DNA of 64,000 nucleotides from Patescibacteria group bacterium (GTDB lineage: Bacteria > Patescibacteriota > Minisyncoccia > Minisyncoccales > UBA10102), in contig JADFNM010000001.1 of assembly GCA_022563395.1 (NCBI GenBank), forward strand, positions 83,891 to 147,890. Direction: 5' to 3'. Below the pieces are notes generated by a model. That model worked only from the letters and a program-made list of their open reading frames with translations, searched no databases and had not been told where the DNA came from. A program made the position numbers and the translations under genes. Positions 6,767 to 54,624 of the stretch are shown here, piece after piece. Positions within the stretch are counted from its first letter, which is position 1; each line of letters opens with the position of its first letter.

Positions 6767-6804
6767 TTTTGCTTTCCGATAACTTTTTTTGTTACAATAT
6801 ACCA

Positions 6805-7368
6805 ATGAACATTTTCCCCCACATCTTAAATAGGGGACTGGCCCACGTGGTAAGATTCAGCTCTATTCCCCAGCATTTTCCAGAGAGCGTGGCAGAGCAT
6901 TCCTTTTACACCGCTTACTATGTTTCCCTGCTCTGTGATATTTTGGAAAAAGCAGACATTGAGATAAACCGAGAGAAAGCAGTCACCATGGCTTTGATTC
7001 ACGACACAGAGGAGATGTTTTCAGGCGACATCCTCACTCCATTTAAGCATTATTCAAACGAGGTAAAAGAAACCATCCAAAAGGTGAACCGCGAGGTCAT
7101 CCCTCAGGTGTATGAGGGATTGCCAAAAGACATGAAAGAGAAATACATTGCCCTCTGGAATGAAGATTCAAATGGGGAGAGTATGGAGGCAAAGATAGTA
7201 AAAGTTGCAGACAGACTATCTCTACTTTCAAAGTGTGCTGAAGAGGTAAAGGTGGGAAACGGATACTTTGAGAATATTTACGAGAGCCAGTTGAAACTAC
7301 TTAAAGATTATGATGCTTCCTGGTGGCAGAAGATAAAAGAGCAGGTCCTCCCCAAGAGTGCTGCTTAA
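6805..7368 (+). CDS. HD-domain phosphohydrolase (YfbR-like 5'-deoxynucleotidase)
   Basis: ESVAEHS...LIHDTEE...VADRLS is an HD motif set. I prefer the ATG at 6805 because TGTTACAAT lies 6 nt upstream. The ORF track starts at a TTG at 6769. Confidence 0.75.
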   Translation: MNIFPHILNRGLAHVVRFSSIPQHFPESVAEHSFYTAYYVSLLCDILEKADIEINREKAVTMALIHDTEEMFSGDILTPFKHYSNEVKETIQKVNREVIPQVYEGLPKDMKEKYIALWNEDSNGESMEAKIVKVADRLSLLSKCAEEVKVGNGYFENIYESQLKLLKDYDASWWQKIKEQVLPKSAA

Positions 7369-9989: not shown

Positions 9990-12098
9990 ATGCCGAGACA
10001 ATACCCTATTGAGAGAGTGCGCGATATTGGAATAATCGCCCACATTGACGCCGGGAAAACCACCACGACCGAGCGTATTTTGTTTTACACGGGTATTTCC
10101 CACAAGATAGGGGAGGTGCATGAAGGGGCAGCTATCATGGACTGGATGGAGCAAGAGAGGGAACGCGGCATTACCATTACCGCAGCCGCCACCACGTGCT
10201 TTTGGACTCCAACCTATGTGAAAGAGAAGAACAAAGAAAAGGAGGTTCGAATCAACATTATTGATACTCCGGGCCACATTGACTTTACCGTAGAGGTACA
10301 GCGCTCCTTGCGGGTGCTGGACGGTGCCATTGTCGTGTTTGACGGAGTGGCGGGGGTGGAACCCCAGTCAGAAACGGTGTGGCGCCAAGCCGACAAATTT
10401 GAGGTTCCCCGTATGTGTTTTATCAACAAGTTAGATCGCATGGGAGCTTCTTTTGAGAAAAGCTTTGGCTCCATTGTAGAAAAACTTACGCCAAATGCTG
10501 TAGCGGTGCAGATTCCTAATGGAGAAGAGGACCAATTCTCAAAGATAATCGACTTAATTTCAATGAAGGCATACTCGTTTACGGGGGACTTTGGGGAAAC
10601 GGTCAAAGAGGAGGAAATTCCAGCAGATTTAAAAGAGAAGGCAAAAGTGTGGCGAGAAAAACTCATGGAAAAGGTAGCAGGAGAGGACGAGTCTTTAATG
10701 AATAGGTATCTTGCGGGAGAAGAAATACCGGCTCTAGATATAAAGAGAGTATTGCGCAAAGCCGCTTTGGCAAATAAGTTGATTCCCGTGTTTGTGGGTT
10801 CTTCTTTAAAAAACAAAGGTGTGCAGTTAATGCTTGACGGAGTGGTGGACTATCTGCCTTCTCCTCAAGATGTTCCTCCCATTAAAGGGATTGACCCGCG
10901 TTCCGGCCAGGAGATTGAACGCCACGCAATAGATACGGAACCCTTCTCTGCTCTTGCCTTCAAGATTGCAACCGATCCCTTTGTAGGTACCCTAACGTAT
11001 TTTCGCGTGTACTCCGGTACTTTAAAAAAGGGCTCGTATGTGTATAACGCTACGACGGGCGTCAAAGAGAGGATTTCTCGTATCTTGAGAATGCATGCGA
11101 ATGAAAGAGAAGAGGTGGAGGAGCTCTATGCGGGGGACATTGCTGCCACTGTGGGGCTTAAAAACACTTCCACGGGGCACACCTTGTCGGACGAAGCAAA
11201 CCCCATCTTGCTTGAACAGATTACCTTTCCAGAGCCTGTTATTTCGGTTCGCATTGAACCTGCCACCAAAGCTGACCAGGAGAAAATGGGCATGGCGTTA
11301 AAACGTTTGTCGGACGAAGACCCAACCTTTAGGGTTTTAACAGACCAGGAGACCAAAGAGATCATTATCTCTGGCATGGGAGAGCTGCACTTGGAAATCA
11401 TCGTAGACCGAATGAAAAGAGAGTTTAATGTTACAGCCAATGTTGGAAGACCTCAGGTTGCCTACAAGGAAACCATTAAGCAAGAAGCAGAAGCAGAAGA
11501 GAAGTATGTCAGGCAGTCTGGCGGTCGTGGGCAGTATGGTCACGTCGTTTTGAGCGTTGAGGCCAAGGAGCGGGGAGAGGGCTTTGAGTTTGTAAATAAG
11601 ATTAAGGGCGGCGCTATTCCTCAAGAATACATTCCAGCCGTAGAAAAAGGAGTAAAAGAAGCCATGGACAAGGGAGTGATAGCTGGGTATCCTGTTATTG
11701 ACTTGAAAGCAACGCTGCTTGACGGGTCTTTTCATGAGGTGGACTCTTCTGAGTTTGCCTTTAAGATTGCCGCCTCCATTGCCTTTCAGGCTGCAGCAAA
11801 GAAAGCTCATGCAGTGTTGCTGGAACCCGTAATGTCGCTTGAGGTAATAATACCCTCTAATTTTCTTGGAGACGTAATTGGAGATTTGTCAGCAAGAAGA
11901 GGAAGGATTGAAGAGACAAAAGACCGGGGAAACCTCAAGGTGATAGATGTCAAGATTCCTTTATCTGAGATGTTTGGGTATGCCACCAACGTGAGGTCCT
12001 TGACCGAAGGAAGAGGAACCTTTACCATGGAGTTCAACACGTATGAGGAGGTGCCGGGGAATATAGCAAATGAAATTATTGAAGGCAAGCGCAGATAA
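9990..12098 (+). CDS. fusA: Elongation factor G
   Basis: [20 protein letters not shown], 702 aa, str-operon position. Confidence 0.97.
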
Positions 12099-12105
12099 AA
12101 GAACT

Positions 12106-12312
12106 ATGGACTTGGAAGAATTAAAACGCATACTGCAAAAAGATAAGGGAAAGATTATCATTGTTGAAAACGGAAAGCCCGTGATGATAATTCTCCCCTA
12201 CGAAAATCAGGACTTGCATCATAGCCAAGAGGAGGCAGTTGAACCTCCTTTGGAGGAAGAAGAGATGGGGCCTGTTCCTGGGGAGTTGACAATTGACGAT
12301 TTGCCGCTATAA
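12106..12312 (+). CDS. Small acidic hypothetical protein with weak Phd/YefM-like N-terminus
   Basis: MDLEELKRILQKDKGKIIIVENGKPVMIILPYENQ followed by an acidic tail. No partner toxin gene is present. Confidence 0.4.
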   Translation: MDLEELKRILQKDKGKIIIVENGKPVMIILPYENQDLHHSQEEAVEPPLEEEEMGPVPGELTIDDLPL

Positions 12313-12429
12313 TTGGAACATTGTCAATTAACGAGCAGTAGCGAGTATAATTGGAACATTGTCAATTAACGAGCAGTAGCGAGTATAATTGGAACATTGT
12401 CAATTAACGAGCAGTAGCGAGTATAATTG
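12308..12429 (+). repeat. Perfect 38-bp tandem repeat x3 plus 8-nt partial fourth copy
   Basis: The unit TATAATTGGAACATTGTCAATTAACGAGCAGTAGCGAG starts at 12308, 12346 and 12384, with a partial copy at 12422. Copy 1 overlaps the upstream stop codon. Confidence 0.95.
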
Positions 12430-12479: not shown

Positions 12480-13673
12480 ATGGCAGAAAAGTTTGAGCGA
12501 ACAAAGCCCCACGTCAATGTTGGTACCATTGGTCACGTTGACCACGGAAAAACCACGTTGTCAGCGGCCATCCTGCATAGTTTGAAGTTGGCAGGAAAGA
12601 ACGTGACCGAGAAATCGATTGACCAGATTGACGCTGCTCCAGAAGAAAAACAGCGGGGTATTACCATTAACATCGCGCACTTGGAGTATGAGACCGACAA
12701 GCGCCACTATGCACACATTGACGCTCCAGGCCATGCAGACTATATCAAGAACATGATTACGGGAGCAGCCCAGATGGATGGCGCCATTTTGGTGGTTTCA
12801 GCTCCAGACGGCCCCATGCCTCAGACCAGAGAGCACATTCTTTTAGCCAGGCAAGTGGGAATTCCGTCTATTATTGTTTTTTTGAACAAGATTGATATGG
12901 TGGATGACCCAGAAATTGCAGATTTGGTAGAATCTGAGGTCAGAGAGCTTTTAAAAAAGTATAACTACCCAGGAGATGATGTTCCTGTAATTCGGGGTTC
13001 TGCTCTAAAGGCATTGGAGGCAACTTCCGTGGACGACGAAGCAATAAAACCCATCTTGGAACTCATGAACAAGGTGGATGAATACATTCCAGAGCCTGTT
13101 CGAGAGATAGACAAGCCATTTTTAATGGCAGTAGAAGATGTCTTTTCGATTGAAGGGCGAGGAACCGTAGCTACGGGAAGAATTGAGCGTGGCATTGTGA
13201 AGTCCAACGAAGAAGTTGAGCTGGTTGGCATTAAGCCCACCTCAAAAACCGTTGTTGTGTCTGTAGAAATGTTTAACAAGTCTTTAGATGAAGGACGAGC
13301 CGGTGATAACGTTGGTATTCTTTTGCGAGGAACCAAGAAAGAAGAGATTGAACGAGGTCAGGTGTTAGCAAAGCCAGGATCCGTAACACCCCACACCGAG
13401 TTTGAGGCCGAGGTGTATGTTTTGGCCAAAGAGGAAGGTGGAAGACACACCCCATTCTTTAAGGGGTACAAACCGCAGTTCTACTTTAGAACTACAGATG
13501 TAACCGGCGACGTTGAACTTCCAGAGGGGACCGAAATGGTAATGCCTGGAGATACCGTGAACTTTAAGGTAAAACTCTTGGTGCCAATTGCCATGGAAGA
13601 AAAGCAGAGATTTGCCATCAGGGAGGGTGGAAAGACCGTGGGAGCAGGAGTTGTGATCAAGATTCTCAACTAA
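12480..13673 (+). CDS. tuf: Elongation factor Tu
   Basis: [24 protein letters not shown], 397 aa. Confidence 0.97.
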
Positions 13674-13705
13674 CCATCCCTCGTTCCTCACGCCCCGTAC
13701 CTTTT

Positions 13706-14050
13706 ATGCCTCCGACAAAGCAAAAAGCAGAAAAACTCTTGCCATTGCAGCAAAAGCTGAGAATAAAGATCTCAGCCTACGACCATAAGGTCATTGACGC
13801 TTCCTCAAAGCAGATCATTGATACTGTTCTCAGATATGGATGCGAGGCAGTAGGTCCTGTTCCCTTGCCAACGGAAATTAAGAAGTATACGGTGAATCGC
13901 TCTTCTTTTGTGCATAAGGACTCAAGGGAACAGTTTGAGATGAGGGTGCACAAGAGAATCATAGACATTCTCAACCCCAGCCAGAAGGTGATTGAGGCCT
14001 TAACCAGTCTCAACCTTCCTGCCGGCGTTGACATCGAAATCAAAATGTAG
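13706..14050 (+). CDS. rpsJ: 30S ribosomal protein S10
   Basis: [20 protein letters not shown]...[11 protein letters not shown] is a typical S10. Confidence 0.95.
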
Positions 14051-14068
14051 CTAGAGAATTGCACTCAT

Positions 14069-14187
14069 CCTAAATGTAATTAAGGAATCCTTAGTTTCAT
14101 TTAGGAGATATGTGCAAGAATCAGTACTGCTTAAACGAGATTTAAGCAAACCAAAGAATCGCCAAACAGGCGGTTTTTTGGTAGAAT
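14069..14187 (+). repeat. Full composite intergenic repeat (palindrome A + tail + X2 + hairpin/T-tract/-10 module)
   Basis: Module A at 14069-14105, AGATATGTG at 14106-14114, CTTAAACGAGATTTAAG at 14130-14146, GGCGGTTTTTTGGTAGAAT at 14169-14187. Confidence 0.85.
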
Positions 14188-14193
14188 AAAAAT

Positions 14194-14907
14194 ATGAAGC
14201 TAGAGAACAAAACCGCATTAATAACTGGGGGTTCGCAAGGAATTGGTAAGGCTATTGCTGGGAGGTTTATTAGGGAAGGTGCAAAGGCCATAGTTTTTGA
14301 TGTTAAAAAGCCAGACTACGAGGCAGAATTTTATCAAGTCGATATACGAGAAGAAGAACAAATCAAAGCAGCTTTTGAACAAATCAAAAGTCTAGATATT
14401 CTCGTCAATAATGCTGGCGTTTACTTTGAGGAGGCGGTAGAGAGCACAACAAAGAAGCAGTTGGATGACATTGTTGATACCAACATTAAGGGGACGTATT
14501 TGATGTGCACGTATGGGATTCCGCTGATTAAGAATAGTAAGGGTACTATCATTAACATCTCTTCTGGGCTTGGGTTAGTCCCCGACCCAGCTGCTCCTGC
14601 ATATTGTGCAACGAAAGCCGCTATAACCATGCTCACAAAATGCATGGCACAGGAGTATGCTGCAGAAGGAGTAAGGATAAATGCAATTCTGCCTGGTCCA
14701 ATTGATACACCGATGTTGAGGAGTGTCTTTGCTTCTGAGAAAGAATTTGATGACTATGCGAAATCGAATCCACTAGGGAAAATTGGGAAAGTAGAGGATG
14801 TTGCAAATGTTGCAGCTTTTTTGGCATCAGACGAAGCAAGCTACGTAACTGGAAGTTTGTATACGGTTGATGGAGGAGAGTCTTCATCAAGCCTGCACTC
14901 TAAATAA
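14194..14907 (+). CDS. Short-chain dehydrogenase/reductase (FabG-like)
   Basis: TGGSQGIG cofactor motif, NNAG, and a YxxxK catalytic motif (YCATK). Confidence 0.85.
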   Translation: MKLENKTALITGGSQGIGKAIAGRFIREGAKAIVFDVKKPDYEAEFYQVDIREEEQIKAAFEQIKSLDILVNNAGVYFEEAVESTTKKQLDDIVDTNIKGTYLMCTYGIPLIKNSKGTIINISSGLGLVPDPAAPAYCATKAAITMLTKCMAQEYAAEGVRINAILPGPIDTPMLRSVFASEKEFDDYAKSNPLGKIGKVEDVANVAAFLASDEASYVTGSLYTVDGGESSSSLHSK

Positions 14908-14949
14908 AACAGGTTCTAACGTCGTCCAGTAGGGGGGGGAGCCATTATT

Positions 14950-15083
14950 GCTTAAACGAGATTTAGGCAATATTCATTTAAATGAATGGTTCCTTAATGA
15001 AATTAAGGAGATATGCGGGAAGTCATTAGTTCTTAAACGAGATTTAAGCAAACCAGGAACCGCCCACTAAGAGCGGTTTTTGG
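14950..15083 (+). repeat. Composite intergenic repeat (X2, 16-nt palindrome, half-A + tail, X2, hairpin/T-tract)
   Basis: GCTTAAACGAGATTTAGGC at 14950-14968, ATTCATTTAAATGAAT at 14972-14987, CCTTAATGAAATTAAGG+AGATATGCG at 14992-15017, X2 at 15032-15048, and a hairpin plus T5 at 15060-15081. Confidence 0.85.
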
Positions 15084-15091
15084 TTGATGTG

Positions 15092-15120
15092 TTGACAGTC
15101 TTTGAGTATTGTCATATACT
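15092..15120 (+). promoter_or_regulatory. Strong sigma70-like promoter TTGACA-17-TATACT upstream of rplC
   Basis: -35 at 15092-15097 and -10 at 15115-15120. A 106-nt leader follows. Confidence 0.6.
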
Positions 15121-15226
15121 CTATTCTATGAACGCTAAGCCAGCCTTGTGAGCGGCGGAGAGGTTGTAGCCACACTACGTCTATGTTAGATGTGCCAGGG
15201 TTACACCCTGGCGTTTTGTTGTAAAT

Positions 15227-15778
15227 ATGAAGGCAATAGTAGGAAGAAAACTGGGTATGACCCAGATATTTAAAGAGGACAAAGTCATTCCGGTGACCGT
15301 TATTGAAGCTGGCCCTGTTTCTGTTTTGCGAAAACTGACCAAAGAAAAGGATGGGTATGACGCAGTGCAGGTTGGGTTTCAGCCAAAAAAGAAGGGATAC
15401 AAGGCAGTGAAAGAGATTAAAGGAAGCCAACTTGAAGTTGGGGACCAAATGACCGTTTCTGTGTTTGAGGAAGGAGATAAGGTGAAAATCTCTGGTATTT
15501 CTAAGGGAAAGGGATTTCAAGGAGGTGTGAAGCGCCACGGATTTCACGGAAGAAAGGCCACCCACGGAGTAAAGCATGAGGAACGAACCATTGGGTCTGT
15601 TGGAAGCATGTTTCCCCAGAGAGTTATTAAAGGAAGACGCATGCCAGGGCGGATGGGAGCGGAAAAGATAACAACCAAAAACCTTCAGGTGGTGCAGGTT
15701 GATGCAGAAAAGAATCTGCTTTCTGTGAAAGGAGCTGTTCCCGGAAGACCGGGTACACTCCTTTTTATTCAAGGATAA
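15227..15778 (+). CDS. rplC: 50S ribosomal protein L3
   Basis: MKAIVGRKLGMTQIF...; S10-operon order. Confidence 0.95.
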   Translation: MKAIVGRKLGMTQIFKEDKVIPVTVIEAGPVSVLRKLTKEKDGYDAVQVGFQPKKKGYKAVKEIKGSQLEVGDQMTVSVFEEGDKVKISGISKGKGFQGGVKRHGFHGRKATHGVKHEERTIGSVGSMFPQRVIKGRRMPGRMGAEKITTKNLQVVQVDAEKNLLSVKGAVPGRPGTLLFIQG

Positions 15779-16883: not shown

Positions 16884-17666
16884 ATGCCAAAGGTTTCAAA
16901 GAAACGACCAGAAAAAGCATTGCTGAGGTATCTTAGTAAAAGTGGAGGGAGGAACAACAGGGGCAGGATCACCGTGTGGCACAGAGGAGGAGGGGTAAAA
17001 CGTCTCTATCGTGTAGTTGACTTTGCACAGGGGCATCTTAACATGCCCGGCAAAGTTGTTGCCATTGAATACGATCCCAACCGCAATGCGCGACTTGCCT
17101 TGCTGGAGTATGAAAATGGGGAGCGCTCTTACGTCTTGGCTCCGCATGAGCTCAAAGAGGGTGACGAGATTGTGACAAAAGACAAGACTGAGATACGAAC
17201 CGGAAATAGAATGCGCATTGGCAATATTCCCGTTGGAACCATGGTGTACAATGTGGAGTTAAGCCCTGACCGAGGCGGAAAGCTTGTGCGTGGAGCGGGG
17301 GCCGCAGCTCAGGTACTTTCGCATGATGCAGGGTATACCCACTTGGCACTGCCATCCACGGAAGTAAGGAGGATTCCTTCAAAAAGTTTTGCTTCAGTGG
17401 GTATGGTTTCCAATCCAGAATACCGATACCAAAAGGTAAAAAATGCAGGCTCAAACCGCCTGAAAGGAAAACGCCCCAAGGTTAGAGGAACCGCGATGAA
17501 CCCTGTGGATCATCCCCACGGGGGAGGTGAGGGAAGGACCGGAAGGGGAATGAAGCATCCCAAAACCCCCTGGGGAAAGCCTGCCTTGGGAGTGAAAACC
17601 AGAAAGAAGAAATGGTCAGACAAGCTTATTGTACAGCGGAGGAAAAAGAAAAAGCGAAAGAAATAA
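16884..17666 (+). CDS. rplB: 50S ribosomal protein L2
   Basis: [16 protein letters not shown] and HPHGGGEG motifs. The ATG at 16884 follows the rplW stop. Confidence 0.95.
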
Positions 17667-17671
17667 AAACC

Positions 17672-17993: not shown

Positions 17994-18485
17994 ATGAAAG
18001 CAACGGCAAAACTGAGGTATTTAAGAATGGCACCTCGCAAGGTTCGCATGGCGGTTGACCTCATTCGGGGAAAGAAGGTTGTGGAAGCGCAACGCCTGCT
18101 TCAATTTGCCGCAAAACATTCTGCATTGCCGGTGTTAAAAACGCTAAACTCAGCTATTGCTTCCGCAAAGAACAATTTTGAGGCGGACGTGGCCAATTTA
18201 TATATCTCCCATATTGCGGTAAACGAGGGACCAAAGTTAAAGCGATACCGCCCAAGGGCGCGGGGACAGGCCTACGAGATCCAGAAGAAGACTTCCCATC
18301 TTACCATTGTGGTAGATGAGATTGAGCAGGGTAAGACAAAGAAAGCCCTGCCTAAATCTCGTTTAGGAACTCCTAACCGAGATTTAGGCAAAACTGCAAA
18401 GCCAAGTTTTCGGCCAGTGCAGGAAACCGCAAAGCAAAAGGAACCGAGAGGAATGCAGAGAATGTTTAGAAGAAAAAGTATCTAA
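17994..18485 (+). CDS. rplV: 50S ribosomal protein L22 with about 50-aa C-terminal extension
   Basis: MKATAKLRYLRMAPRKVR...; the extension contains repeat units. Confidence 0.92.
   Translation: MKATAKLRYLRMAPRKVRMAVDLIRGKKVVEAQRLLQFAAKHSALPVLKTLNSAIASAKNNFEADVANLYISHIAVNEGPKLKRYRPRARGQAYEIQKKTSHLTIVVDEIEQGKTKKALPKSRLGTPNRDLGKTAKPSFRPVQETAKQKEPRGMQRMFRRKSI
18351..18389 (+). repeat. Two X2-type repeat units inside the rplV coding sequence
   Basis: CCTAAATCTCGTTTAGG at 18351-18367 and CCTAACCGAGATTTAGGC at 18372-18389. Translated in frame they read LPKSRLGTPNRDLGK. Confidence 0.8.
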
Positions 18486-28327: not shown

Positions 28328-28331
28328 CATT

Positions 28332-28409
28332 GCCTAAATCTCATTTAAGCAATATCAATAGTGCCTAAATGAAATTAAGGATTCCTTAATTTCATTTAGG
28401 AGATATTCG
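28332..28409 (+). repeat. Intergenic repeat: reversed X2 unit + 37-nt palindrome A + tail
   Basis: GCCTAAATCTCATTTAAGC at 28332-28350, module A at 28364-28400, AGATATTCG at 28401-28409. Confidence 0.85.
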
Positions 28410-28419
28410 CTTTCGCCAT

Positions 28420-29106
28420 ATGGCTTCGCTCAAGCGCAACAGCAGTATTCTTGATTACCAGGAGTTTGTACGGCAGGTGTACGGTTTAAACAACGACCGC
28501 TACTTTAGCACTACAGACATTCTTACCCAGGTGCAGCGCTTTTGCATGCGCGGCCTTAAGGGAATCCGCAAGGGCGAGAGACAAAAGACAACACTCAATT
28601 TTTTGATTGCCCTCTGCTGGTTTATGTCTTTAATGAATCAGTTGCATATTGATCTCGCAGCTGCAACTTGGCAAAGGTTTCCCAGCCTCTGTTCATACTG
28701 CGGGAGTTGTCCGTGTGTTTGCAAAAAACAGAAGGTAAAGAAACGAAAAAGGGTTATAGCAAGAAACGGCAAGAAGCCAAAAACCATTGCAGAGTTTCAG
28801 CGCATGTTCTCTGTTATTTATCCTAAAGAGAGTAGAACCCTTGAACATGCGGGTATCCATCTGGGAGAGGAAATGGGGGAGCTGGCCGAAGCAGTGTTGG
28901 CATACCGAGGGGGAAGGAATGAAGAGGACTTTGAAAAAGTAGCTGAAGAGGGCGCAGATTTTCTTTCCTGCCTGTTTGGTGTATGTAATTCATGGGATAT
29001 TGAGGTTGCAAAGGAGCTTGCAGCAATGTTTCCTGAGAACTGCCATGTGTGCAAAAAGGCTCCATGCGAGTGTAGTTTTCAGTCCATCACCGATTTTAAG
29101 TCCTAA
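28420..29106 (+). CDS. MazG-like NTP pyrophosphohydrolase-domain protein with Cys knuckles
   Basis: HLGEEMGELAEAV...EEGADFL has MazG-type EExxE/D spacing. It carries CSYCGSCPCVC and CHVCKKAPCEC motifs. Confidence 0.55.
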   Translation: MASLKRNSSILDYQEFVRQVYGLNNDRYFSTTDILTQVQRFCMRGLKGIRKGERQKTTLNFLIALCWFMSLMNQLHIDLAAATWQRFPSLCSYCGSCPCVCKKQKVKKRKRVIARNGKKPKTIAEFQRMFSVIYPKESRTLEHAGIHLGEEMGELAEAVLAYRGGRNEEDFEKVAEEGADFLSCLFGVCNSWDIEVAKELAAMFPENCHVCKKAPCECSFQSITDFKS

Positions 29107-29145
29107 AAAGTTATTCACATTGACGAAAAATCTTAGCCAATAATT

Positions 29146-29263
29146 CCTTAATGAAATTAAGGATTCCTAAATTTCATTAAGGAGATATGCGAAGAACCAT
29201 TAGCTCCTAAACGAGATTTAAGCAAGCCAAAGAATCGCTAGGAAGGCGGTTTTTTGATAGGAT
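29146..29263 (+). repeat. Full composite intergenic repeat
   Basis: An A variant at 29146-29182, AGATATGCG at 29183-29191, CCTAAACGAGATTTAAG at 29206-29222, GGCGGTTTTTTGATAGGAT at 29245-29263. Confidence 0.85.
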
Positions 29264-29270
29264 AGAGTGG

Positions 29271-31109
29271 ATGAGTAAAGAGAATAAGAAAGTTGAGTTC
29301 CCATTATTAGTATATGACGGAGATTGCACATTTTGTCGCGCATGGGTTGATTACTGGAAAAGTTTAACAGGAGATAGAGTTGCATATGCTCCTTTTCAAG
29401 AGGTAGCAGAACAGTTTCCAACAATCCCCCTCAAGGAATTTAAAAATTCGGTTCAGCTCATTACTCCAAAAGGAAAGATATACAGTGGAGCTCATGGGGT
29501 ATTTCGTACCTTGGCCTTGGGTAAGGCAGTAAAGTGGCTGCTTTTTATGTATCTTAGGGTTCCTGGTTTTGCATTCTTTTCTGAACTCTTTTACAGGATT
29601 ATTGCACGTCACCGCGGTCTTGCCTATTTTTTAACGAAAGTTTTTTGGGGAAAGCAGCTTATCCGTCCCTCATACATTCTTGTTCGGTGGCTCTTTTTTA
29701 GACTCTTCGGAGTCGTTTACCTTACTGCATTTATCTCGCTCTTCCTGCAGTTGTCGGGTCTTGTGGGGAGCAATGGCATTTTGCCTGCCAGCAATTTTTT
29801 GGAGGTACTGATAGATAATCTGGGACCCAAAGCCTTTTGGTTTTTTCCTACGGTAGCCTGGTTGAATGTAAGCGATCTATTTTTGCACCTGGTAGCCCTT
29901 GTGGGCGCAGTTTTATCACTCCTTCTTATCTTTGGGATAACCCGTACTCGTCTGTTGGCTGCCCTCTGGTTTTTGTATTTATCTCTTTTTACAGTTGGGC
30001 AGGTCTTTTTGTCATTTCAGTGGGATATTTTACTTTTGGAGGTAGGGTTCTTGGCCATACTCTTGACCCTGTCTCAAAATGTTATCTGGCTGTTTCGTTG
30101 GCTGTTGTTTAAATTTATCCTGATGTCTGGCGCAGTCAAGCTCTTAAGCGGGGATATTATCTGGAGAAATTTTACTGCCCTCAATTTTCATTATCAAACA
30201 CAACCCCTCCCAACTCCTTTTGCCTGGTATATGCACCAGCTCCCAGAATGGTTTCAAAAGTTTTCCGTTGGTTTTACGTTTTTTGTGGAACTTGGGATTG
30301 TGTTTTTGATTTTTGCACCCCGTCGCCTCAGACTCGTTGCAGCCTTTTTTATCGCAGGCAGCCAAGTCTTGATACTTTTGACCGGAAACTACACCTTCTT
30401 TAACTTCCTCACCATTATTCTTTGTGTGTTTTTACTTGACGACGCTTTTCTCAGCCGTATCTCTCCAAAGAAGTTTGCAGAAAGAATTGTCAAACGTTTT
30501 TCTCCACGAATCATACCGGGCCCCGGACAAGTTGCTTTAGCAACCATTGCCTTTGTCCTTGTGTTCTTCAGTATTCTTCAGATGACCCTCATGTTTTCTG
30601 GTTCCTTGCCAAGCTCAGCTCAAGGTATGTTGCGCATTATGCAACCTTTTCACATTGTGAATACCTATGGGCTGTTTGCAGTCATGACTACCTCAAGGCC
30701 AGAACTCATTATTGAGGGCTCCAATGATGGAGAGCACTGGCAAGAGTATGAATTCAAGTATAAACCAGGCGATCTGAGAAAACCACCTGGCTTCGTAGCT
30801 CCTCACCAGCCTCGTTTAGATTGGCAAATGTGGTTTGCGGCATTACATGCACAAAGAGCTTTGGAAAGTGGCATAGAAGAGGGGAGGTATAATCTATGGT
30901 TTGTAAACTTTATGGTTAGGCTACTGCAAGATTCTCCGCAGGTCTTAAAACTCTTGGCCAAAAACCCCTTTCCTGAATCTCCGCCACGCTATGTAAGAGC
31001 ATTGTTGTATGAGTACCAATTCACTGATTTTGATACGAAGAAGCGAGAGGGTACGTGGTGGAAAAGGGAATTGAAAGAAATATATCTTCCTTCTTTATCA
31101 TTGCAATGA
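29271..31109 (+). CDS. Fusion protein: DCC-type thiol-disulfide oxidoreductase (DUF393) + lipase-maturation-factor (LMF) family membrane domain
   Basis: N-terminus has VYDGDCTFCRAWV (DUF393). The rest is polytopic, with HQPRLDWQMWFAAL typical of LMF. Confidence 0.7.
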   Translation: MSKENKKVEFPLLVYDGDCTFCRAWVDYWKSLTGDRVAYAPFQEVAEQFPTIPLKEFKNSVQLITPKGKIYSGAHGVFRTLALGKAVKWLLFMYLRVPGFAFFSELFYRIIARHRGLAYFLTKVFWGKQLIRPSYILVRWLFFRLFGVVYLTAFISLFLQLSGLVGSNGILPASNFLEVLIDNLGPKAFWFFPTVAWLNVSDLFLHLVALVGAVLSLLLIFGITRTRLLAALWFLYLSLFTVGQVFLSFQWDILLLEVGFLAILLTLSQNVIWLFRWLLFKFILMSGAVKLLSGDIIWRNFTALNFHYQTQPLPTPFAWYMHQLPEWFQKFSVGFTFFVELGIVFLIFAPRRLRLVAAFFIAGSQVLILLTGNYTFFNFLTIILCVFLLDDAFLSRISPKKFAERIVKRFSPRIIPGPGQVALATIAFVLVFFSILQMTLMFSGSLPSSAQGMLRIMQPFHIVNTYGLFAVMTTSRPELIIEGSNDGEHWQEYEFKYKPGDLRKPPGFVAPHQPRLDWQMWFAALHAQRALESGIEEGRYNLWFVNFMVRLLQDSPQVLKLLAKNPFPESPPRYVRALLYEYQFTDFDTKKREGTWWKRELKEIYLPSLSLQ

Positions 31110-31189
31110 TTTTCTACAAGCATTTCATTAAGGTCTGCCTGCCGCAGGCAGGAAATATGCAAGGGAATCAGTAAAAAAAGTTATTCACA

Positions 31190-31217
31190 TTGACGAGAAA
31201 GCTTGCAAGCATATGAT
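31190..31217 (+). promoter_or_regulatory. Putative promoter TTGACG-16-TATGAT
   Basis: -35 at 31190-31195 lies inside the 26-nt direct repeat; -10 at 31212-31217. Confidence 0.5.
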
Positions 31218-31382
31218 GTAAAGAAGAGTACATGCCGGGGAGTGGTCGCCCCCTGCACCTTGATATTTCTCATCTTGAGAACATGCCAAAAAAGAAAAAA
31301 GGCAAGAAGAAAAAGAAATAATATTTTTCTTGGAACAAAAAGAGAGAGCTGCAAAGTTACTCTCTTTTTGTTATTATGGTGT

Positions 31383-32114
31383 ATGAGCGGTAAACTTCGT
31401 CTTGCTCTTCTCATATCTGGGGGTGGGAGTACAACGCAAGCAATTATCCGGGCCTCAAAATCAGGACAACTTGCGGTGCAGCCCGTTTGTGTAATTGCGA
31501 GCACGAATGAAGCGGGGGGAATTAAGCTGGCTCTCAAAGAAGAGATTGCGCCAAAAGACGTTCTTGTTCTCAAACCCGAGGAGTATGTTTCCCCCGAAGC
31601 ATTTGGGGAAGCAATCCTTGCTGCGTGCAGGGCACGAGGCGTAGATATCATTGGGCAATATGGCTGGATGCCAAGAACTCCAGCGAATGTGATTGCGGCT
31701 TTTTTGGGCAGGATGATAAACCAACATCCAGGGCCGCTTGATCCTGGAAGACCTGATTTCGGCGGGAGAGGAATGTTTGGAAGGCGTGTTCATGCAGCGC
31801 GTCTCTGGTTTGTGCGTAAAACCGGGCAAGACTTCTGGACGGAAGCAACAGCTCAATTGGTCGCAGAGCAGTTTGACAAGGGAGCGCTTCTAAAAACTCA
31901 ACGACTTAAGATTCTGCCCGATGATGATCCTAAACTCCTGCAAAGGCGCCTTCTTTCAGTGGAGCATGAAGTACAGATAGCAACACTCCAGGATTTTGCT
32001 CTGGGGCAGGTCAAAGTACTCTTGCCCCGTAAGTATCCTCTTGTGCCTCCCGACAAGGAATCTCTTTTGAAAGAGGCAAAACAGATTGCATGCGCCCGCT
32101 TCCCGCATGGATAG
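31383..32114 (+). CDS. Formyltransferase-family protein (PurN-like)
   Basis: LALLISGGGSTTQAII...INQHPGPL resembles GAR transformylase. I chose the ATG at 31383, because the ORF-track N-terminus covers the leader. Confidence 0.55.
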   Translation: MSGKLRLALLISGGGSTTQAIIRASKSGQLAVQPVCVIASTNEAGGIKLALKEEIAPKDVLVLKPEEYVSPEAFGEAILAACRARGVDIIGQYGWMPRTPANVIAAFLGRMINQHPGPLDPGRPDFGGRGMFGRRVHAARLWFVRKTGQDFWTEATAQLVAEQFDKGALLKTQRLKILPDDDPKLLQRRLLSVEHEVQIATLQDFALGQVKVLLPRKYPLVPPDKESLLKEAKQIACARFPHG

Positions 32115-32159
32115 TAGAAGAAGTGACAGCGGGTGCGTTTTATGGCATAATCAAAAACC

Positions 32160-33223: not shown

Positions 33224-35044
33224 ATGGGGGCAAACGAGATACGAGAAAAGTATCTGAACTTTTTTAAAGAGCGGGGGCACAGCATTATTCCCTCTTCTTC
33301 TTTAGTTCCAGAAAATGATCCCACCACCTTGTTTGTGGGTTCTGGCATGCAGCCGCTGATTCCCTACCTTTTGGGCGTAAAGCACCCCATGGGCTCTCGT
33401 CTGGTAAACTCACAAAAGAGTTTTCGGGCAGAAGACATAGAAGAGGTGGGCGACAATCGCCACACCACTTTTTTTGAGATGCTCGGGAACTGGTCGCTGG
33501 GCGACTATTTTAAGGAAGAACAGCTTTCTTGGTTTTTCTCTTTTTTAACAGATGAGATGGGCTTGGACCCTCAAAAACTCTACGTCACCGTGTTTTCTGG
33601 AGACACAGAGAACAATATTCCCAAAGACGAGGAGTCCATTGCCATTTTAAAACGCCTATTTCAAGAAAGGGGGATTGAGGCAAAGGAGGGGGAGCGCATC
33701 TTTGCCTATGGGGTCGAAAAAAACTGGTGGAGCAGATCAGGAATCCCTTCCAATATGCCAGTAGGTGAGCCGGGAGGCCCTGATTCTGAGGTTTTTTACG
33801 ACTTTGGCACTCCACATGATATAAGGTATGGCGAAAAGTGTCATCCAAACTGCGACTGTGGAAGGTTCCTTGAAATAGGGAACTCCGTATTTATGGAATA
33901 CAAAAAGAAGGACGACGGGAGTTTTGAAAAACTCAAACAGCGCAACGTAGACTTTGGCGGGGGATTGGAAAGGATTACGGCTGCAGTGAACAATGAGCCA
34001 GATGTATTCAAGGGAGATCTACTATTTCCTCTCATTCAAAAAGCAGCAGAGCTTTCTGGCAGGAGCTACGAGAAACACGTCAATTCTTTTCGCGTCATTG
34101 CAGATCATGTGAGAGGAGCTGCCTTTATGATTGGAGATGGCGTTATTCCTTCTAATACAGAGCGCGGATATATTGTTAGAAGATTGCTTCGCCGTGCAGT
34201 GCGCCACGCTGATTTAATAGGAATGGAAGAGGGAAATCTGGCCCTGTTCGTCGATCCTTTACTTGCCGCATATCAAAAAGTATACCCCGAGGTTGCAGAA
34301 CGCAGAGAAGAGATTGTGCAGCATATCCAAGAAGAGGAAAAGAGGTTTCGCATCACTCTTCAAAATGGATTGAAGGAATTTGAGAAACTTTCTGGAAACA
34401 ATATTTCTGGCAAGGAGGCTTTTGACCTCTATCAGACCTATGGATTTCCTCTCGACGTTACCCTAGAGCTTGCAAGGGAAAAAGGAGTTACGGTAGATAC
34501 TACAAGTTTTGAGCAAGAGTTTTTAAAGCATCAAGAAGTTTCCCGGACTGCAGCAGCAGGAAGGTTTAAAGGAGGTCTTGCTGATACCTCCTATGAAACA
34601 ACAAAACTTCATACCACAAACCATTTATTGCTTGCGGCTCTCCGCAAAGTACTTGGGCAAAACGTGCACCAGCGGGGAAGCAACATTACGGCAGAACGCA
34701 TCCGCCTGGATTTCTCTCATGGGCAAAAGATGACTCCAGAGGAGATACAACAGGTTGAGGATTTGACGAATGAAAAAATTCAAGAGGGTCTGGATATGGT
34801 CAGAAAAGAAATGTCAAAAGAGGAAGCAGTAAAATTGGGGGCCGAAATGGAGTTTGGGATAAAGTATGGAGATGTGGTGTCTGTGTATGTCGCACAAGAT
34901 AAAAAAGGGAATGTATTTTCCAAAGAGTTTTGTGGTGGGCCCCATGTGAAAAGTACCTCAGAGCTCGGCAAGTTTAGAGTTGTGAAGGAAGAGGCAGTCT
35001 CTGCTGGCGTGCGCCGCATCCGCGCAGTATTAGAACCTAAATGA
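33224..35044 (+). CDS. alaS: Alanine--tRNA ligase, short form (606 aa, no C-Ala/DHHA1 region)
   Basis: IREKYLNFFKERGH...FVGSGMQP, editing HxxxH (HTTNHLL) and CGGPHV. Confidence 0.92.
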   Translation: MGANEIREKYLNFFKERGHSIIPSSSLVPENDPTTLFVGSGMQPLIPYLLGVKHPMGSRLVNSQKSFRAEDIEEVGDNRHTTFFEMLGNWSLGDYFKEEQLSWFFSFLTDEMGLDPQKLYVTVFSGDTENNIPKDEESIAILKRLFQERGIEAKEGERIFAYGVEKNWWSRSGIPSNMPVGEPGGPDSEVFYDFGTPHDIRYGEKCHPNCDCGRFLEIGNSVFMEYKKKDDGSFEKLKQRNVDFGGGLERITAAVNNEPDVFKGDLLFPLIQKAAELSGRSYEKHVNSFRVIADHVRGAAFMIGDGVIPSNTERGYIVRRLLRRAVRHADLIGMEEGNLALFVDPLLAAYQKVYPEVAERREEIVQHIQEEEKRFRITLQNGLKEFEKLSGNNISGKEAFDLYQTYGFPLDVTLELAREKGVTVDTTSFEQEFLKHQEVSRTAAAGRFKGGLADTSYETTKLHTTNHLLLAALRKVLGQNVHQRGSNITAERIRLDFSHGQKMTPEEIQQVEDLTNEKIQEGLDMVRKEMSKEEAVKLGAEMEFGIKYGDVVSVYVAQDKKGNVFSKEFCGGPHVKSTSELGKFRVVKEEAVSAGVRRIRAVLEPK

Positions 35045-35141
35045 AATTAAGGAATCCTTAATTTCATTTAGGAGATATGTGGAGAACCAGTAGCTCCTAA
35101 ACGAGATTTAAGCAAACCAAAGAATCGCTAGAGGGATGGTG
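35036..35141 (+). repeat. Composite intergenic repeat overlapping the alaS stop codon
   Basis: Module A at 35036-35072 includes CCT AAA TGA of alaS. AGATATGTG at 35073-35081, X2 at 35096-35112, and a degenerate third module. Confidence 0.85.
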
Positions 35142-35148
35142 ATTACTA

Positions 35149-46766: not shown

Positions 46767-46784
46767 GTTTAGATTTGAATAGTT

Positions 46785-46877
46785 CTTAAACGAAATTTAA
46801 GCACCCTTAATTTCATTAAGGATATATGCGTTTATCTTAAAACAAAGAATCGCAAACAGGTGGTTTTTTGGTAAAAA
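46785..46877 (+). repeat. Rearranged composite intergenic repeat
   Basis: CTTAAACGAAATTTAAGC at 46785-46802, CCTTAATTTCATTAAGG+ATATATGCG at 46805-46830, AACAAAGAATCGC...GGTGGTTTTTTGGTAAAAA ending at 46877. Confidence 0.8.
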
Positions 46878-46883
46878 GAAGAT

Positions 46884-47621
46884 ATGAGATTTGAGAAGTG
46901 GCACGGTCTTGGGAACGACTTTATTCTTTTGGATTGCCGGGTCAACGATATCCCAAATAAAAAGGCACTTGCTATCAAACTTTGTGATAGGCACTTTGGC
47001 ATTGGGGCAGACGGCCTTGTATGTATCTTACCGAGCATTGTGGCAGATTACACAATGGAGATTTTCAACCCAGACGGGAGTGAGGCTGAAATGTGCGGGA
47101 ACGCAATTCGCTGCGTTGCAAAGTTGCTCAAGAAATCTCCTGTGACTATTGAGACTTCATCTGGGATAAAAGAATGTGTTGCGCAAACGGATGGTTCAGT
47201 CAAGGTTAATATGGGAAGCCCCTTAAATATTAAAAAACAAGGCAGGTTTACAACCCTCTCTATGGGTAATCCTCATGCAGTTCTCTATGTAGACAACTTT
47301 GACTTTGATTGGAAGCAAGAAGGAGAAAAGATTGAGAACAATAGAGAGATGTTTCCAGAAAGAACAAATGTAGAGTTTGTGAAAATACTCAACGACGATA
47401 CCATCCGGGTGAAGGTATGGGAAAGGGGAGCTGGCGCAACGCTTGCATGTGGGACAGGAGCATGTGCTTCTATTGTAGCGGCTGTAATCGATAAAGGTAT
47501 TCACCGGGATGTCAACGTAGAACTACCTGGAGGAAAGCTGTTCGTGTCTTGGTCTGAATCTGGAGATGTTTACATCACAGGGCCGGCTGAGAAGGTTTTT
47601 GAAGGAGATTTGGTTTTATGA
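46884..47621 (+). CDS. dapF: Diaminopimelate epimerase (short form)
   Basis: FEKWHGLGNDFILLD, GNPH, ACGTGA catalytic Cys motifs. Confidence 0.88.
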   Translation: MRFEKWHGLGNDFILLDCRVNDIPNKKALAIKLCDRHFGIGADGLVCILPSIVADYTMEIFNPDGSEAEMCGNAIRCVAKLLKKSPVTIETSSGIKECVAQTDGSVKVNMGSPLNIKKQGRFTTLSMGNPHAVLYVDNFDFDWKQEGEKIENNREMFPERTNVEFVKILNDDTIRVKVWERGAGATLACGTGACASIVAAVIDKGIHRDVNVELPGGKLFVSWSESGDVYITGPAEKVFEGDLVL

Positions 47622-47677
47622 GAGCTAGGTTTTAACATCCCTTTAGAGGAGGGCCGGCGTCTCGCAGAGCTATTACT

Positions 47678-47765
47678 GCTTAAACGAGATTTAAGCAAAC
47701 TCACCTAAAGCGAGCGGTTCTTAAACGAAATTAAGGATTCCTTAATTTCGTTAAGGAGATATACG
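47678..47765 (+). repeat. Intergenic repeat: X2 unit + palindrome A variant + tail
   Basis: GCTTAAACGAGATTTAAGC at 47678-47696, CTTAAACGAAATTAAGGATTCCTTAATTTCGTTAAGG at 47720-47756, AGATATACG at 47757-47765. Confidence 0.85.
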
Positions 47766-47817
47766 TATAACTCTTATGGGGCTTTTCTTTTTTAAAAAAA
47801 TATGTATAGTGGAAAAT

Positions 47818-52786: not shown

Positions 52787-52813
52787 CCTAAAAACTTAAT
52801 CTCGCTTTGTTTT

Positions 52814-52860
52814 CCTTAGCAAAAACTAAGGGTGCTTTAATTTCATTTAGGAGATATGCG
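52814..52860 (+). repeat. Partial intergenic repeat (hairpin + right arm of A + tail)
   Basis: CCTTAGCAAAAACTAAGG at 52814-52831, CTTTAATTTCATTTAGG at 52835-52851, AGATATGCG at 52852-52860. Confidence 0.75.
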
Positions 52861-52958
52861 ATTCTTTACGGGTTTGACAAAACTTGTGTTTCTGGTAAAA
52901 GGTGGGTAGCACCCTCAAATCTCATACGAGGGTTGATACTTGTCTGAGGAGAGACATC

Positions 52959-53819: not shown

Positions 53820-53830
53820 AAAGGAGAGGC

Positions 53831-54433: not shown

Positions 54434-54472
54434 ATATCATAGTAATTCCTTGGGTAAAACCTGGGATTGCAA

Positions 54473-54508
54473 GCCGCTGAACATCTGTTCAGCGGCCTTT
54501 CTTTTCTT
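54473..54508 (+). terminator. Canonical intrinsic terminator after pyrE
   Basis: GCCGCTGAAC-ATCT-GTTCAGCGGC (10-bp stem) followed by CTTTCTTTTCTT. Confidence 0.8.
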
Positions 54509-54520
54509 ATTTCAATGGTT

Positions 54521-54566
54521 CCTAAATGAAATTAAGGATGCCTTAATCTCATTTAGGAGATATGCG
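54521..54566 (+). repeat. Intergenic repeat: palindrome A + tail
   Basis: CCTAAATGAAATTAAGGATGCCTTAATCTCATTTAGG at 54521-54557, AGATATGCG at 54558-54566. Confidence 0.85.
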
Positions 54567-54595
54567 GTTCTCATATTTTTGTGGATAACTTCCTC

Positions 54596-54624
54596 TTGAT
54601 TTTAAAGGGATTTTAAGGTAAAAT
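54596..54624 (+). promoter_or_regulatory. Promoter TTGATT-17-TAAAAT, 6 nt before pheS ATG
   Basis: Hexamers at 54596-54601 and 54619-54624. Confidence 0.55.

Follow-up and report, generated by a model that had tools for sequence, protein, structure and literature searches.

How does a gene for a short-chain dehydrogenase (SDR) come to lie between rpsJ and rplC in a member of the Patescibacteria, and do the repeats on either side of it have a part in its being there? In the 64-kb stretch of patescibacterial DNA analysed here (the window; all features are on its + strand), rpsJ is followed by a composite repeat, the SDR gene, a second composite, a consensus promoter and rplC, and ORF, Pfam, repeat and promoter scans bear out the positions that an initial annotation had given for all features between the two ribosomal-protein genes. 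Patescibacteria have tiny, streamlined genomes, and to our knowledge the gain and expression of new genes is poorly understood in this phylum, for which we know of no genetic tools.

An accessory gene between rpsJ and rplC

The gene for ribosomal protein S10, rpsJ (13706-14050; Pfam Ribosomal_S10, 4e-33), lies 32 nt behind tuf, is the final gene of the upstream unit and encodes a C-terminus (...DIEIKM, then stop) that is kept in relatives. The SDR gene (14194-14907, 237 aa) comes next, and rplC (L3; 15227-15778; Pfam Ribosomal_L3) is the first gene of the unit that runs on through rplD, rplW and rplB. The SDR product belongs to the classical SDR family, with 169.7 bits against Pfam adh_short (cut-off 26.6; 7e-50) and 192 bits against adh_short_C2 (1.6e-56), and has the cofactor-binding and catalytic motifs, TGGSQGIG at residue 11, NNAG at 72, SSG at 123 and YCATK at 137. 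It thus shares the Rossmann TGxxxGxG, the NNAG and the Ser-Tyr-Lys catalytic residues with classical SDR oxidoreductases of the FabG, glucose 1-dehydrogenase or alcohol dehydrogenase type, and its best matches in the PDB (the top one being 8yai, 1.6e-46) are SDR oxidoreductases and archaeal glucose or aldohexose dehydrogenases. It differs from them in that no NCBIfam model reaches its equivalog cut-off; rejected on these grounds are an assignment to FabG (190 against a cut-off of 296, and 173.5 against 297.75) and a translation-related, EF-P-modifying role like that of YmfI (153 against 238).

The nearest homologues are 72-74% identical and lie in unrelated gene contexts, the closest of them never among ribosomal-protein genes. 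The SDR gene has the lowest GC3 (0.37) yet ordinary codon usage, and the only clear compositional outlier, by codon usage and GC, is pyrF-pyrE. Foreign origin is therefore not shown by codon usage or GC, and the unremarkable codon usage implies either that the acquisition is not recent or that the donor was similar in composition.

The arrangement is 99.9% identical in all five contigs fetched, out of six on record, and these come from five different samples, which rules out an assembly artefact; none of the five is an empty-site allele of the species. In the closest relative, L012 (tuf 95% identical), rpsJ is followed by a terminator, then roughly 150 nt, then a promoter and leader matching those of the window, and rplC, with no SDR gene. 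We also looked at whether all relatives, even those without the repeats, carry the same SDR gene between rpsJ and rplC, as an old arrangement unrelated to the repeats would have it. They do not: it is absent from this site in more than 85 relatives possessing both genes, and is found in none of 80 metagenomic relatives, many of which have other inserts at the junction. Gene order across these genomes shows the SDR gene to be a lineage-specific insertion directly after the rpsJ stop codon, in agreement with the initial annotation, which had taken it for an accessory gene inserted at this point.

The inserts found in other relatives are a Zeta_toxin gene (L094), a PaaX/Cas2-like gene (L145, L161), a ParE toxin gene with an adjoining ORF that has no Pfam match and may encode an antitoxin (L152), a sugar transferase (L168), a DNA methylase (L099) and a reverse transcriptase (L020). 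The same conserved flanks thus hold different cargo from genome to genome, as in minimal mobile elements, and the rpsJ-rplC boundary is shown to be a recurrent insertion hotspot in Patescibacteria. In L094, the terminator AGGAACCGCC-loop-GGCGGTTTTTGG stands both behind the cargo and behind a duplicated rpsJ 3' end.

The promoter and leader of rplC

The promoter in front of rplC, TTGACA-17-TATACT (15092-15120), had been read as strong and as new, re-driving rplC after the insertion. It has 11 of 12 matches to the consensus; new it is not, as the same hexamers and leader are present in the SDR-less L012 (hexamers identical, spacer diverged) and in L094 (there TTGACA-17-TACACT), and relatives have promoters upstream of an rplC attenuator leader. 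It follows from the shared promoter and leader in L012 and L094 that rpsJ and rplC were already separate transcription units. Nor did the insertion split an operon, as had been proposed: in the phylum, rpsJ is the last gene of a tuf-rpsJ unit, and a separate unit with an attenuator leader begins at rplC. The native rpsJ terminator (CCAGGAACCGCC...GCGGTTTTTGG, 15053-15083, by folding) has the same stem in L094, and because the SDR gene lies upstream of both this terminator and the ancestral rplC promoter and leader, it occupies a pre-existing boundary between transcription units and not the inside of an operon.

The leader itself (15121-15226) contains a box, TGTAGCC (15165-15171), and a terminator hairpin (15193-15213) with a U-run, and the box is able to pair with the 5' arm and loop of the hairpin as a predicted antiterminator. 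Over 576 kb searched, significant covariance-model matches were confined to the rpsJ-rplC spacers of about 38 relatives. With the leader sequences re-aligned to the covariance model (MAFFT had set GGGTTA-type hairpins out of register), pairing reaches 92% in the terminator helix (76% in shuffles) and 89% in the box helix (78%), and each of the two helices shows compensatory changes. What precedes rplC is hence a conserved, operon-specific and covarying structured 5' UTR of the kind that defines ribosomal-protein leaders. Rfam gave only tRNAs and sub-threshold noise, both for the whole window at the gathering threshold and for 13650-15300 at E-values up to 10, so that neither the leader nor the repeats described below are a known RNA family. 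We conclude that the rplC leader is, by its predicted structure, a terminator/antiterminator attenuator that is conserved across Patescibacteria and absent from Rfam, and a new candidate ribosomal-protein leader.

The leader of the S10 operon of E. coli acts by L4-mediated attenuation. A candidate L4 leader has been described upstream of rplC in Archaeoglobi (PMC7247131). Like these two, the patescibacterial element is a 5' leader that carries a terminator hairpin and a U-run just before the first gene of the L3-L4-L23-L2 cluster, and here the alternative pairing covaries; it differs from the E. coli leader in preceding rplC instead of rpsJ, and from both in its unrelated sequence and structure.

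Repeat modules and gene gain

Behind the rpsJ stop codon lies an A-A' palindromic doublet (14068-14106), two inverted 19-nt units that fold as a 17-bp hairpin, with the tag GAGATATG (14105-14114) right behind it, and then a hairpin, B, followed by AACCA (14130-14153). The composite ends in what we call the TP module (14151-14193), in which folding and promoter scans reveal a terminator hairpin (CCAAAGAATCGCC/GGCGGTTTTTTGG, 14151-14181) overlapping an extended -10 box (TGGTAGAAT, 14179-14187), with the ATG of the SDR gene 6 nt downstream and a predicted leaderless mRNA. The fold of this left composite has a z-score of -10. On the other side, a 17-mer termed the X motif (GGTTCTAACGTCGTCCA, 14912-14928) lies 4 nt past the SDR stop codon; it also stands directly upstream of an SDR homologue in L173 and L174 and behind another gene in L173, with variants in L010. 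It is followed by a right-hand block (14951-15019; repeat search and fold) made of a B* hairpin (14951-14970), a small palindrome, one A unit (14991-15009) and the tag GAGATATGCGGG (15008-15019), and by a second copy of B and AACCA (15032-15055). The 24-mer CTTAAACGAGATTTAAGCAAACCA is identical in the two copies of B and AACCA, forming a perfect direct repeat on either side of the SDR gene. Overall, the flanking composites are only 77% identical, whereas the left one is 92% identical to a copy 21 kb away (c35035), which leaves no clean duplication signature beyond the 24-mer and leads us to reject a simple recent duplication at insertion.

A 17-nt direct repeat, AAAATGTAGCTAGAGAA / AATATGAAGCTAGAGAA, with one copy at the stop codon of rpsJ and the other where the SDR gene starts, is a candidate target duplication; its chance probability, by rough estimate and not computed, is a borderline ~0.08 in 1.5 kb, and the MKL encoded at the SDR start is native to SDR homologues.

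The repeat family is abundant in the window, with 22 matches to unit A (0.08 expected), 11 to hairpin B (0 expected) and at least seven doublets resembling A-A'. About 14 loci combine A-A' doublets and B units in variable order, in the manner of palindromes of the REP/BIME or REPIN type. A search allowing up to two mismatches had suggested that the family is confined to this species, an idea dropped after nhmmer and looser searches, which revealed a solo copy, in L191, as well as diverged ones in L189, L190 and L192. Viral contigs scanned with units A and B gave single matches only, at chance level.

Repeats border all four gene blocks that are peculiar to the window in 50 kb of otherwise collinear sequence, so that the view that they mark insertions is upheld; they are present at 4 of 4 insertion junctions but at 2 of about 48 others (hypergeometric 5.5e-5). 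At the dapF site, which is empty in L191, that genome already has a solo A-A''-tag repeat, which implies that the repeat preceded the insertion there or exists independently. Repeats also occur without gene gain, at 35035 (against L190), at 41983 and inside rplV, where a B'-B doublet lies in frame in the C-terminal linker, and 14 of about 27 window spacers of at least 60 nt carry them. The first of these is a composite of about 110 nt between an AlaRS-like gene and the next gene, upstream of a conserved promoter; the filled site (35039-35148), set against the empty one in L190 (16637-16645), has neither the terminal inverted repeats nor the target-site duplication that characterise a MITE. Among the genes of the 64-kb window and of the cassette loci examined there is none for a recombinase or transposase, and hence no integron IntI, and the window has no RAYT (IS200/IS605-like) gene.

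The TP module reads ATCGCC-N5-GGCG-T6-GGTAGAAT, with an ATG 6-8 nt further on. The initial annotation had the left composite supplying the -10 box of the SDR gene, and this finds support in the recurrence of the T-tract, TGGTAGAAT, a 6-8 nt spacing and an ATG in front of other inserted genes, and also in further genomes (L094, L006, L010, L172 and L173). In each of the 15 strict copies the ATG follows the -10 box after 6-8 nt, and Shine-Dalgarno motifs are rare in the window. Strict TP half-sites number 12 in 76 kb of cassette-like loci, where 3-4 modules occur per 6-13 kb, and 1 in about 980 kb of ribosomal-protein loci; the latter is in L094, where the same module precedes a different cargo, the zeta toxin gene, at the rpsJ junction. 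The TP module of the window is 86-92% identical over 40-52 nt (blastn) to modules downstream of SDR homologues.

In other Patescibacteria, TP modules bound nearly identical SDR and HD gene cassettes, each an ORF with its 3' palindrome, and each module also holds a predicted promoter. In L172, L173 and L006 the ORF and its 3' TP module, and nothing beyond them, are 96-98% identical at the DNA level; the flanks are unrelated, and the boundaries, near position -4 relative to the ATG and at the -10 box, are sharp. L006 differs from L172 by an extra HD gene and TP module between its modules TP1 and TP2, and the L172 junction joins the left side of L006 TP1 to the right side of L006 TP2, that is, it is a module-by-module recombinant. 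Aligned TP junctions lie in the interval from TGGTAGAAT to the ATG; reading them by eye, we noted no GTTRRRY-type core.

How the cargo may have been gained

We favour, at a probability of roughly 0.6, the reading that the SDR gene is a lineage-specific insert at a hotspot between two units, accompanied by a TP module, and that such cargo is gained by recombination between repeated modules. The TP module would terminate the tuf-rpsJ transcript and start a leaderless, monocistronic SDR mRNA, while the native terminator would insulate rplC, which would retain its own promoter and feedback attenuator; the mRNA start, the termination and the leaderless translation are predicted from the DNA. Recombination between module copies, homology-driven or through a recombinase, would leave the cargo between direct repeats, in this case the identical 24-mer of B and AACCA with a terminator behind it, and the empty-site junction is predicted to read ...GAATCAGTACTGCTTAAACGAGATTTAAGCAAACCAGGAACCGCCCACTAAGAGCGG. 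It is plausible, though unproven, that insertion is mediated by the repeats themselves. Weighing against this reading are the want of a clean duplication signature outside the 24-mer, the repeats without gene gain, the absence of a recombinase or transposase gene from the window and the cassette loci examined, the ordinary codon usage of the SDR gene, and the presence of that gene in all five contigs of the species.

The SDR gene, dapF, pyrFE and others could also owe their presence to ordinary horizontal transfer or to illegitimate recombination, with A, B and TP as selfish elements of the REP/BIME or MITE kind that settled later in the new, non-essential spacers, which tolerate them. We find this somewhat doubtful. 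Repeats without gene gain (the composite at 35039-35148, the doublet within rplV) and their presence in about half of the spacers mean that the link between repeats and insertions could in large part stem from passive settling in spacers that tolerate repeats, and the low likeness of the flanking composites fits as well; against this stand the repeat already present at the empty dapF site of L191, the shared TP module that L094 has in front of another cargo at this junction, and the coincidence of TP modules with the exact homology edges of cassettes and with a recombinant junction elsewhere, and the filled site at 35039-35148 lacks the hallmarks that a MITE-like form would require. A dedicated site-specific system, integron- or dif-module-like, in which a recombinase with its gene elsewhere in the genome acts on the palindromes (A-A' or ATCGCC-N5-GGCGAT), cuts cassettes out as circles and puts them back at resident sites, would account for the sharp cassette edges, the direct repeats around the cargo, the solo site at an empty locus, the density of modules in cassette-like loci and the X motif, which follows the SDR gene in the window but precedes an SDR homologue in L173, as if a circle had been opened at different points. 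We nevertheless consider it improbable, as none of the loci examined showed a gene for an integrase or recombinase, no GTTRRRY-type core was noted on reading the aligned TP junctions, the cassettes bring their own promoter, and homologous recombination between 45-60-nt modules explains the same footprints. An ancestral rpsJ-SDR-rplC order with loss in relatives, or a chimeric assembly, agrees with the fit of SDR codon usage to the genome but deserves hardly any credence given the relatives without the gene at this site, the contexts of its closest homologues and the agreement of independent contigs.

Recombination between modules may, if taken further, point to a previously undescribed patescibacterial gene-cassette system, in which single accessory genes would be bounded by a palindromic ATCGCC-N5-GGCG-T6-GGTAGAAT-N6-ATG module that insulates, expresses a leaderless mRNA and serves as recombination site, and in which cassettes would move between genomes and dock even in the ribosomal-protein supercluster; this we offer tentatively. 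Integron cassettes are mostly promoterless, and their attC sites can form arrays, such as the Vibrio cholerae repeats. The patescibacterial cassettes resemble them as single ORFs, each with an imperfect palindromic repeat of ~50-130 nt behind it, with sharp edges, the same orientation and solo sites; they differ in that no intI was seen and no R'/R'' core (GTTRRRY) noted at the aligned junctions, that the modules carry a terminator and promoter, and that the cassettes are dispersed and reach even a junction of core genes. Regulatory activity is also known from mosaic intergenic repeats such as REP/BIME, pneumococcal BOX, the Correia elements of Neisseria and 'mobile promoters'. With these the present family shares palindromic units (A, A', B, tag, TP) in variable order between genes, oriented with transcription and supplying terminators and promoters, while the filled site lacks terminal inverted repeats as well as any target duplication, TA or other, the RAYT or IS200-like gene associated with REP/BIME is missing from the window, and the link to gene gain is unusually tight.

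Minimal mobile elements, or hotspots of horizontal transfer between conserved core genes, are a concept from Neisseria (as used in PMC3787668). The rpsJ/rplC pair behaves alike in holding different cargo by relative, and exchange through recombination in its conserved flanks is plausible; it differs in lying inside the ribosomal-protein supercluster and in that its cargo is also bounded by short TP modules common to distant genomes. We know of no natural transformation in this organism. Literature searches turned up no account of such insertions in Patescibacteria, nor one of the rplC leader in this phylum.

The universally conserved rpsJ-rplC junction is thus a recurrent docking site in Patescibacteria, one that tolerates insertions because rplC has a conserved attenuator leader. 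Newly gained genes arrive with a portable terminator-promoter module, which also surrounds near-identical cassettes of distant relatives. Should this module indeed be the recombination substrate, it would provide a simple, self-insulating way of gene exchange and a useful marker of accessory genes in metagenome-assembled genomes.

An accessory gene between rpsJ and rplC

ORF calls and Pfam matches give the gene order fusA, a small ORF, tuf, rpsJ (13706-14050), a short-chain dehydrogenase gene (SDR, 14194-14907), rplC (15227-15778), rplD and onwards. Of six contigs on record, the five that were fetched, each from a different sample, carry the same order with 99.9% identity, so that the rpsJ-SDR-rplC arrangement is not a misassembly. 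The SDR and its repeats are present as initially annotated. RseP homologues place the host organism near Candidatus Wildermuthbacteria. Around this locus, an 80-aa ORF overlapping the end of fusA (12070-12312), which lacks a Pfam match, is called in all same-species contigs and has a counterpart with 76% identity in L012, the closest relative among species-representative genomes. Upstream of tuf there is a perfect TTGACA-16-TATAAT (12286-12313), and the tuf leader carries a tandemly repeated stretch (12308-12429) that differs in length among samples, being 100 nt longer in the same-species contigs L001 and L002. An indel at the rplB/rpsS junction (17616-17669; 54 nt in the window, 10 nt in L001) alters the gene calls, with L2 and S19 forming a single 354-aa product in L001.

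The SDR encodes an intact enzyme of the classical short-chain dehydrogenase type (motifs TGGSQGIG, NNAG, SSG and YCATK), which scores under every NCBIfam equivalog cut-off; among solved structures its best relatives are generic oxidoreductases of the SDR family together with archaeal dehydrogenases for glucose or aldohexose. It is present neither in L012 (tuf 95%, S10 84% and L3 79% identical) nor in any of 80 metagenomic S10 relatives, which shows it to be an accessory gene inserted at this site, as proposed at the outset. Its nearest homologues, from Nealsonbacteria and DPANN archaea, are just 72-74% identical and always stand in other gene contexts, often adjoining an HD/YfbR-like gene. Codon usage is ordinary, so that either the acquisition is of some age or the gene came from a compositionally similar donor. 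The HD/YfbR-like 5'-deoxynucleotidase gene follows the SDR homologue in L006 and L010 and precedes it in L007; the HD gene of the window (6769-7368) lies 7 kb upstream of the SDR.

The rpsJ-rplC spacer as an operon boundary and hotspot

The rplC promoter, at first considered new, is by comparison ancestral. Downstream of rpsJ, L012 has a strong terminator, ~150 unrelated nt and then the TTGACA-17-TATACT hexamers of the window, with a diverged promoter spacer but the same leader; L094, another relative, has TTGACA-17-TACACT at the equivalent position. The leader (15121-15226; box 15165-15171, hairpin 15193-15213) ends, as in most Patescibacteria relatives, in a hairpin and U-run, 10-40 nt upstream of the rplC start codon. 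We built a covariance model on 24 spacers, with the box left unpaired, and searched it against 576 kb, where its significant matches were confined to rpsJ-rplC spacers (~38 loci). The terminator helix is 92% paired compared with 76% in shuffles, and the upstream box (ATAGCC, ATTGCC, TAACC and others), complementary to the 3' half of the 5' arm and the loop, forms a helix that is 89% paired, shuffles reaching 78%, and that shows compensatory GC-to-AT changes. Both helices covary among these ~38 Patescibacteria relatives, and we interpret the leader as a terminator/antiterminator attenuator. It has no match in Rfam 15, and the published lists of ribosomal leader candidates lack it; for the position upstream of rplC they give only an archaeal L4 leader (PMC7247131). 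Between attenuator and rplC start, L094 carries two tandem copies of a ~50-nt unit (1822-1925).

Given the ancestral promoter and conserved attenuator, rpsJ closes, in this phylum, a tuf-rpsJ unit and rplC heads a regulated unit of its own, consistent with rpsJ-rplC gaps of ~90-250 nt in Patescibacteria against ~10-60 nt in non-CPR bacteria. The SDR thus sits at an inter-operon boundary and, contrary to what had been supposed, does not split an operon. This junction is a hotspot, at which relatives hold other genes: a zeta-toxin kinase (L094), PaaX/Cas2-like proteins (L145, L161), a ParE toxin gene with an adjoining ORF without Pfam match (L152), a sugar transferase (L168), a DNA methylase with T5orf172 and DUF4145 genes (L099) and a reverse transcriptase (L020).

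Repeat modules, cassettes and gene gain

The repeats are modular, comprising an A-A' doublet, a tag (GAGATATGCG), hairpin B and a terminator hairpin (arms CCAAAGAATCGCC/GGCGGTTTTTTGG). They are real, since B (CTTAAACGAGATTTAAGCAA) has 11 matches in the window against 0 expected and A (TCCTTAATGAAATTAAGGA) 22 against 0.08. Inverted A-A' doublets fold as a 17-bp hairpin, and the terminator T-tract merges into an extended -10 box (TGGTAGAAT), 6 nt 3' of which lies the SDR ATG; we refer to terminator hairpin, T-tract and box as the terminator-promoter (TP) module. An identical 24-mer (B+AACCA) plus a terminator occurs on both SDR flanks (14130-14181 and 15032-15083), within composites that are 77% alike overall. 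Units also occur elsewhere: an in-frame palindromic B'-B doublet in rplV (17994-18485; doublet 18348-18391) encodes KALPKSRLGTPNRDLGKT in the variable C-terminal linker of L22, kept in the relatives L189 and L190 and missing from L012, and a DHFR/RibD_C-like gene (62508-63029), adjoined by a divergent thyA, is bracketed by units at 62461 and 63037 (region 62457-63096).

Decisive is the comparison with L094, where B-like and A-like hairpins directly after the rpsJ stop precede CCAAAGAATCGCC..GGCGATTTTTTGGTAGAATAAACAT-ATG, almost identical to the TP module of the window and predicted to drive the zeta-toxin gene at the same junction. Behind the cargo come a duplicated rpsJ 3' end (~15-30 nt at the insert's right border, 1639-1656) and the native terminator GGAACCGCC..GGCGGTTTTTGG, whose window counterpart is 15053-15083. 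TP modules also lie directly 3' of SDR homologues in L172, L173, L006 and L010, which share 96-98% DNA identity across exactly the ORF and 45-60 nt of module, from ~4 nt before the ATG up to the -10 box; their flanks are unrelated. Compared with L172, L006 has an additional HD gene and module, and the one module of L172 joins the left side of L006 module 1 to the right side of module 2, a hybrid that marks recombination between modules.

The strict half-site GGCGNT6G[GA]TAGAAT occurs 12 times in 76 kb of cassette-type loci and twice in the window, compared with one copy, in L094, in ~980 kb of relatives' ribosomal-protein loci. An ATG follows every copy by 6-8 nt and Shine-Dalgarno motifs are scarce in the window, which together fit leaderless initiation. 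In many genes that open a unit, a -10 box stands 6-8 nt ahead of the ATG (8255, 14194, 26570, 29271, 35184, 46884, 54631), which suggests that leaderless mRNAs are widespread in the window. A 17-mer, GGTTCTAACGTCGTCCA, lies 3' of the SDR in the window (14912-14928) and 5' of it in L173; usually preceded by AAACA, it is found at gene borders in several Patescibacteria genomes (L173, 3183 and 5471; L010, 7864 and 10285). Just 3' of the SDR stop codon and this motif is a G8 homopolymer (14932-14939).

From fusA to gyrB (50 kb), the window is perfectly collinear with L012 and L189-L192 except for four window-only blocks, and the repeats mark insertions, bordering 4/4 of these blocks against 2/~48 other junctions (hypergeometric 5.5e-5). 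Besides the SDR, the blocks comprise three genes at 28420-32114 (an unknown 228-aa protein, a 612-aa LMF1/DCC1 protein and a formyltransferase-like protein), dapF (46884-47621) and pyrF-pyrE (52902-54433). The three genes (region 28328-32159), with repeats at their left border and again behind the first of them, are missing in L190 between an RNaseH-like gene and mnmA. Repeat modules lie on both sides of dapF (region 46767-47775), which is missing between rseP and a class II aaRS in L191 and L192; in L191 (closest relative), a solo A-A''-GAGATATGCG 10 nt before the aaRS start codon is orthologous to the right-hand copy of the window, so that a resident repeat occupies the empty site. The pyrF-pyrE pair, the compositional outlier of the window (GC 0.55, GC3 0.61), lies between a tRNA cluster and pheS with repeats on both flanks (region 52787-54630); it is missing in L192, and L191 has there a different PRTase, a reversed pyrF-like gene and a LAGLIDADG gene.

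Proposed recombination between repeat copies and its alternatives

In the mechanism we favour, the TP module would end the tuf-rpsJ transcript and start a leaderless SDR mRNA, and the cargo would have been gained via recombination between repeat copies, leaving the identical 24-mer and a terminator on both flanks. Three results speak against a simple duplication: the flanking composites have diverged, we found no recombinase or transposase in the 64-kb window or the comparison loci examined, and there was no empty-site allele among the five fetched contigs of the species.

The principal rival is that REP/BIME-like elements passively colonised permissive spacers. Insertion of repeats by themselves, without gene gain, is seen in the B'-B doublet of rplV and in a composite of ~110 nt (35039-35148) between an AlaRS-like gene and a conserved promoter, an interval of 8 nt in L190 (16637-16645). 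The composite changes the last residues and stop codon of the AlaRS-like gene and leaves the promoter intact, and comparison of filled and empty site reveals neither terminal inverted repeats nor a target-site duplication. Less likely is the variant of a dedicated integron-like system: no intI gene was found in the window and loci examined, reading of the aligned junctions brought up no GTTRRRY core, and the modules carry predicted promoters. Of the original interpretation, the marking of insertions and the supply of expression signals by the repeats stand, recombination between copies being our preferred route, while the promoter is ancestral and the two units were already separate. We regard the arrangement as a variant of core-flanked hotspots, or minimal mobile elements, and likewise of repeat-bounded cassettes; as a by-product, the study yields in the rplC leader a new candidate ribosomal-protein leader.
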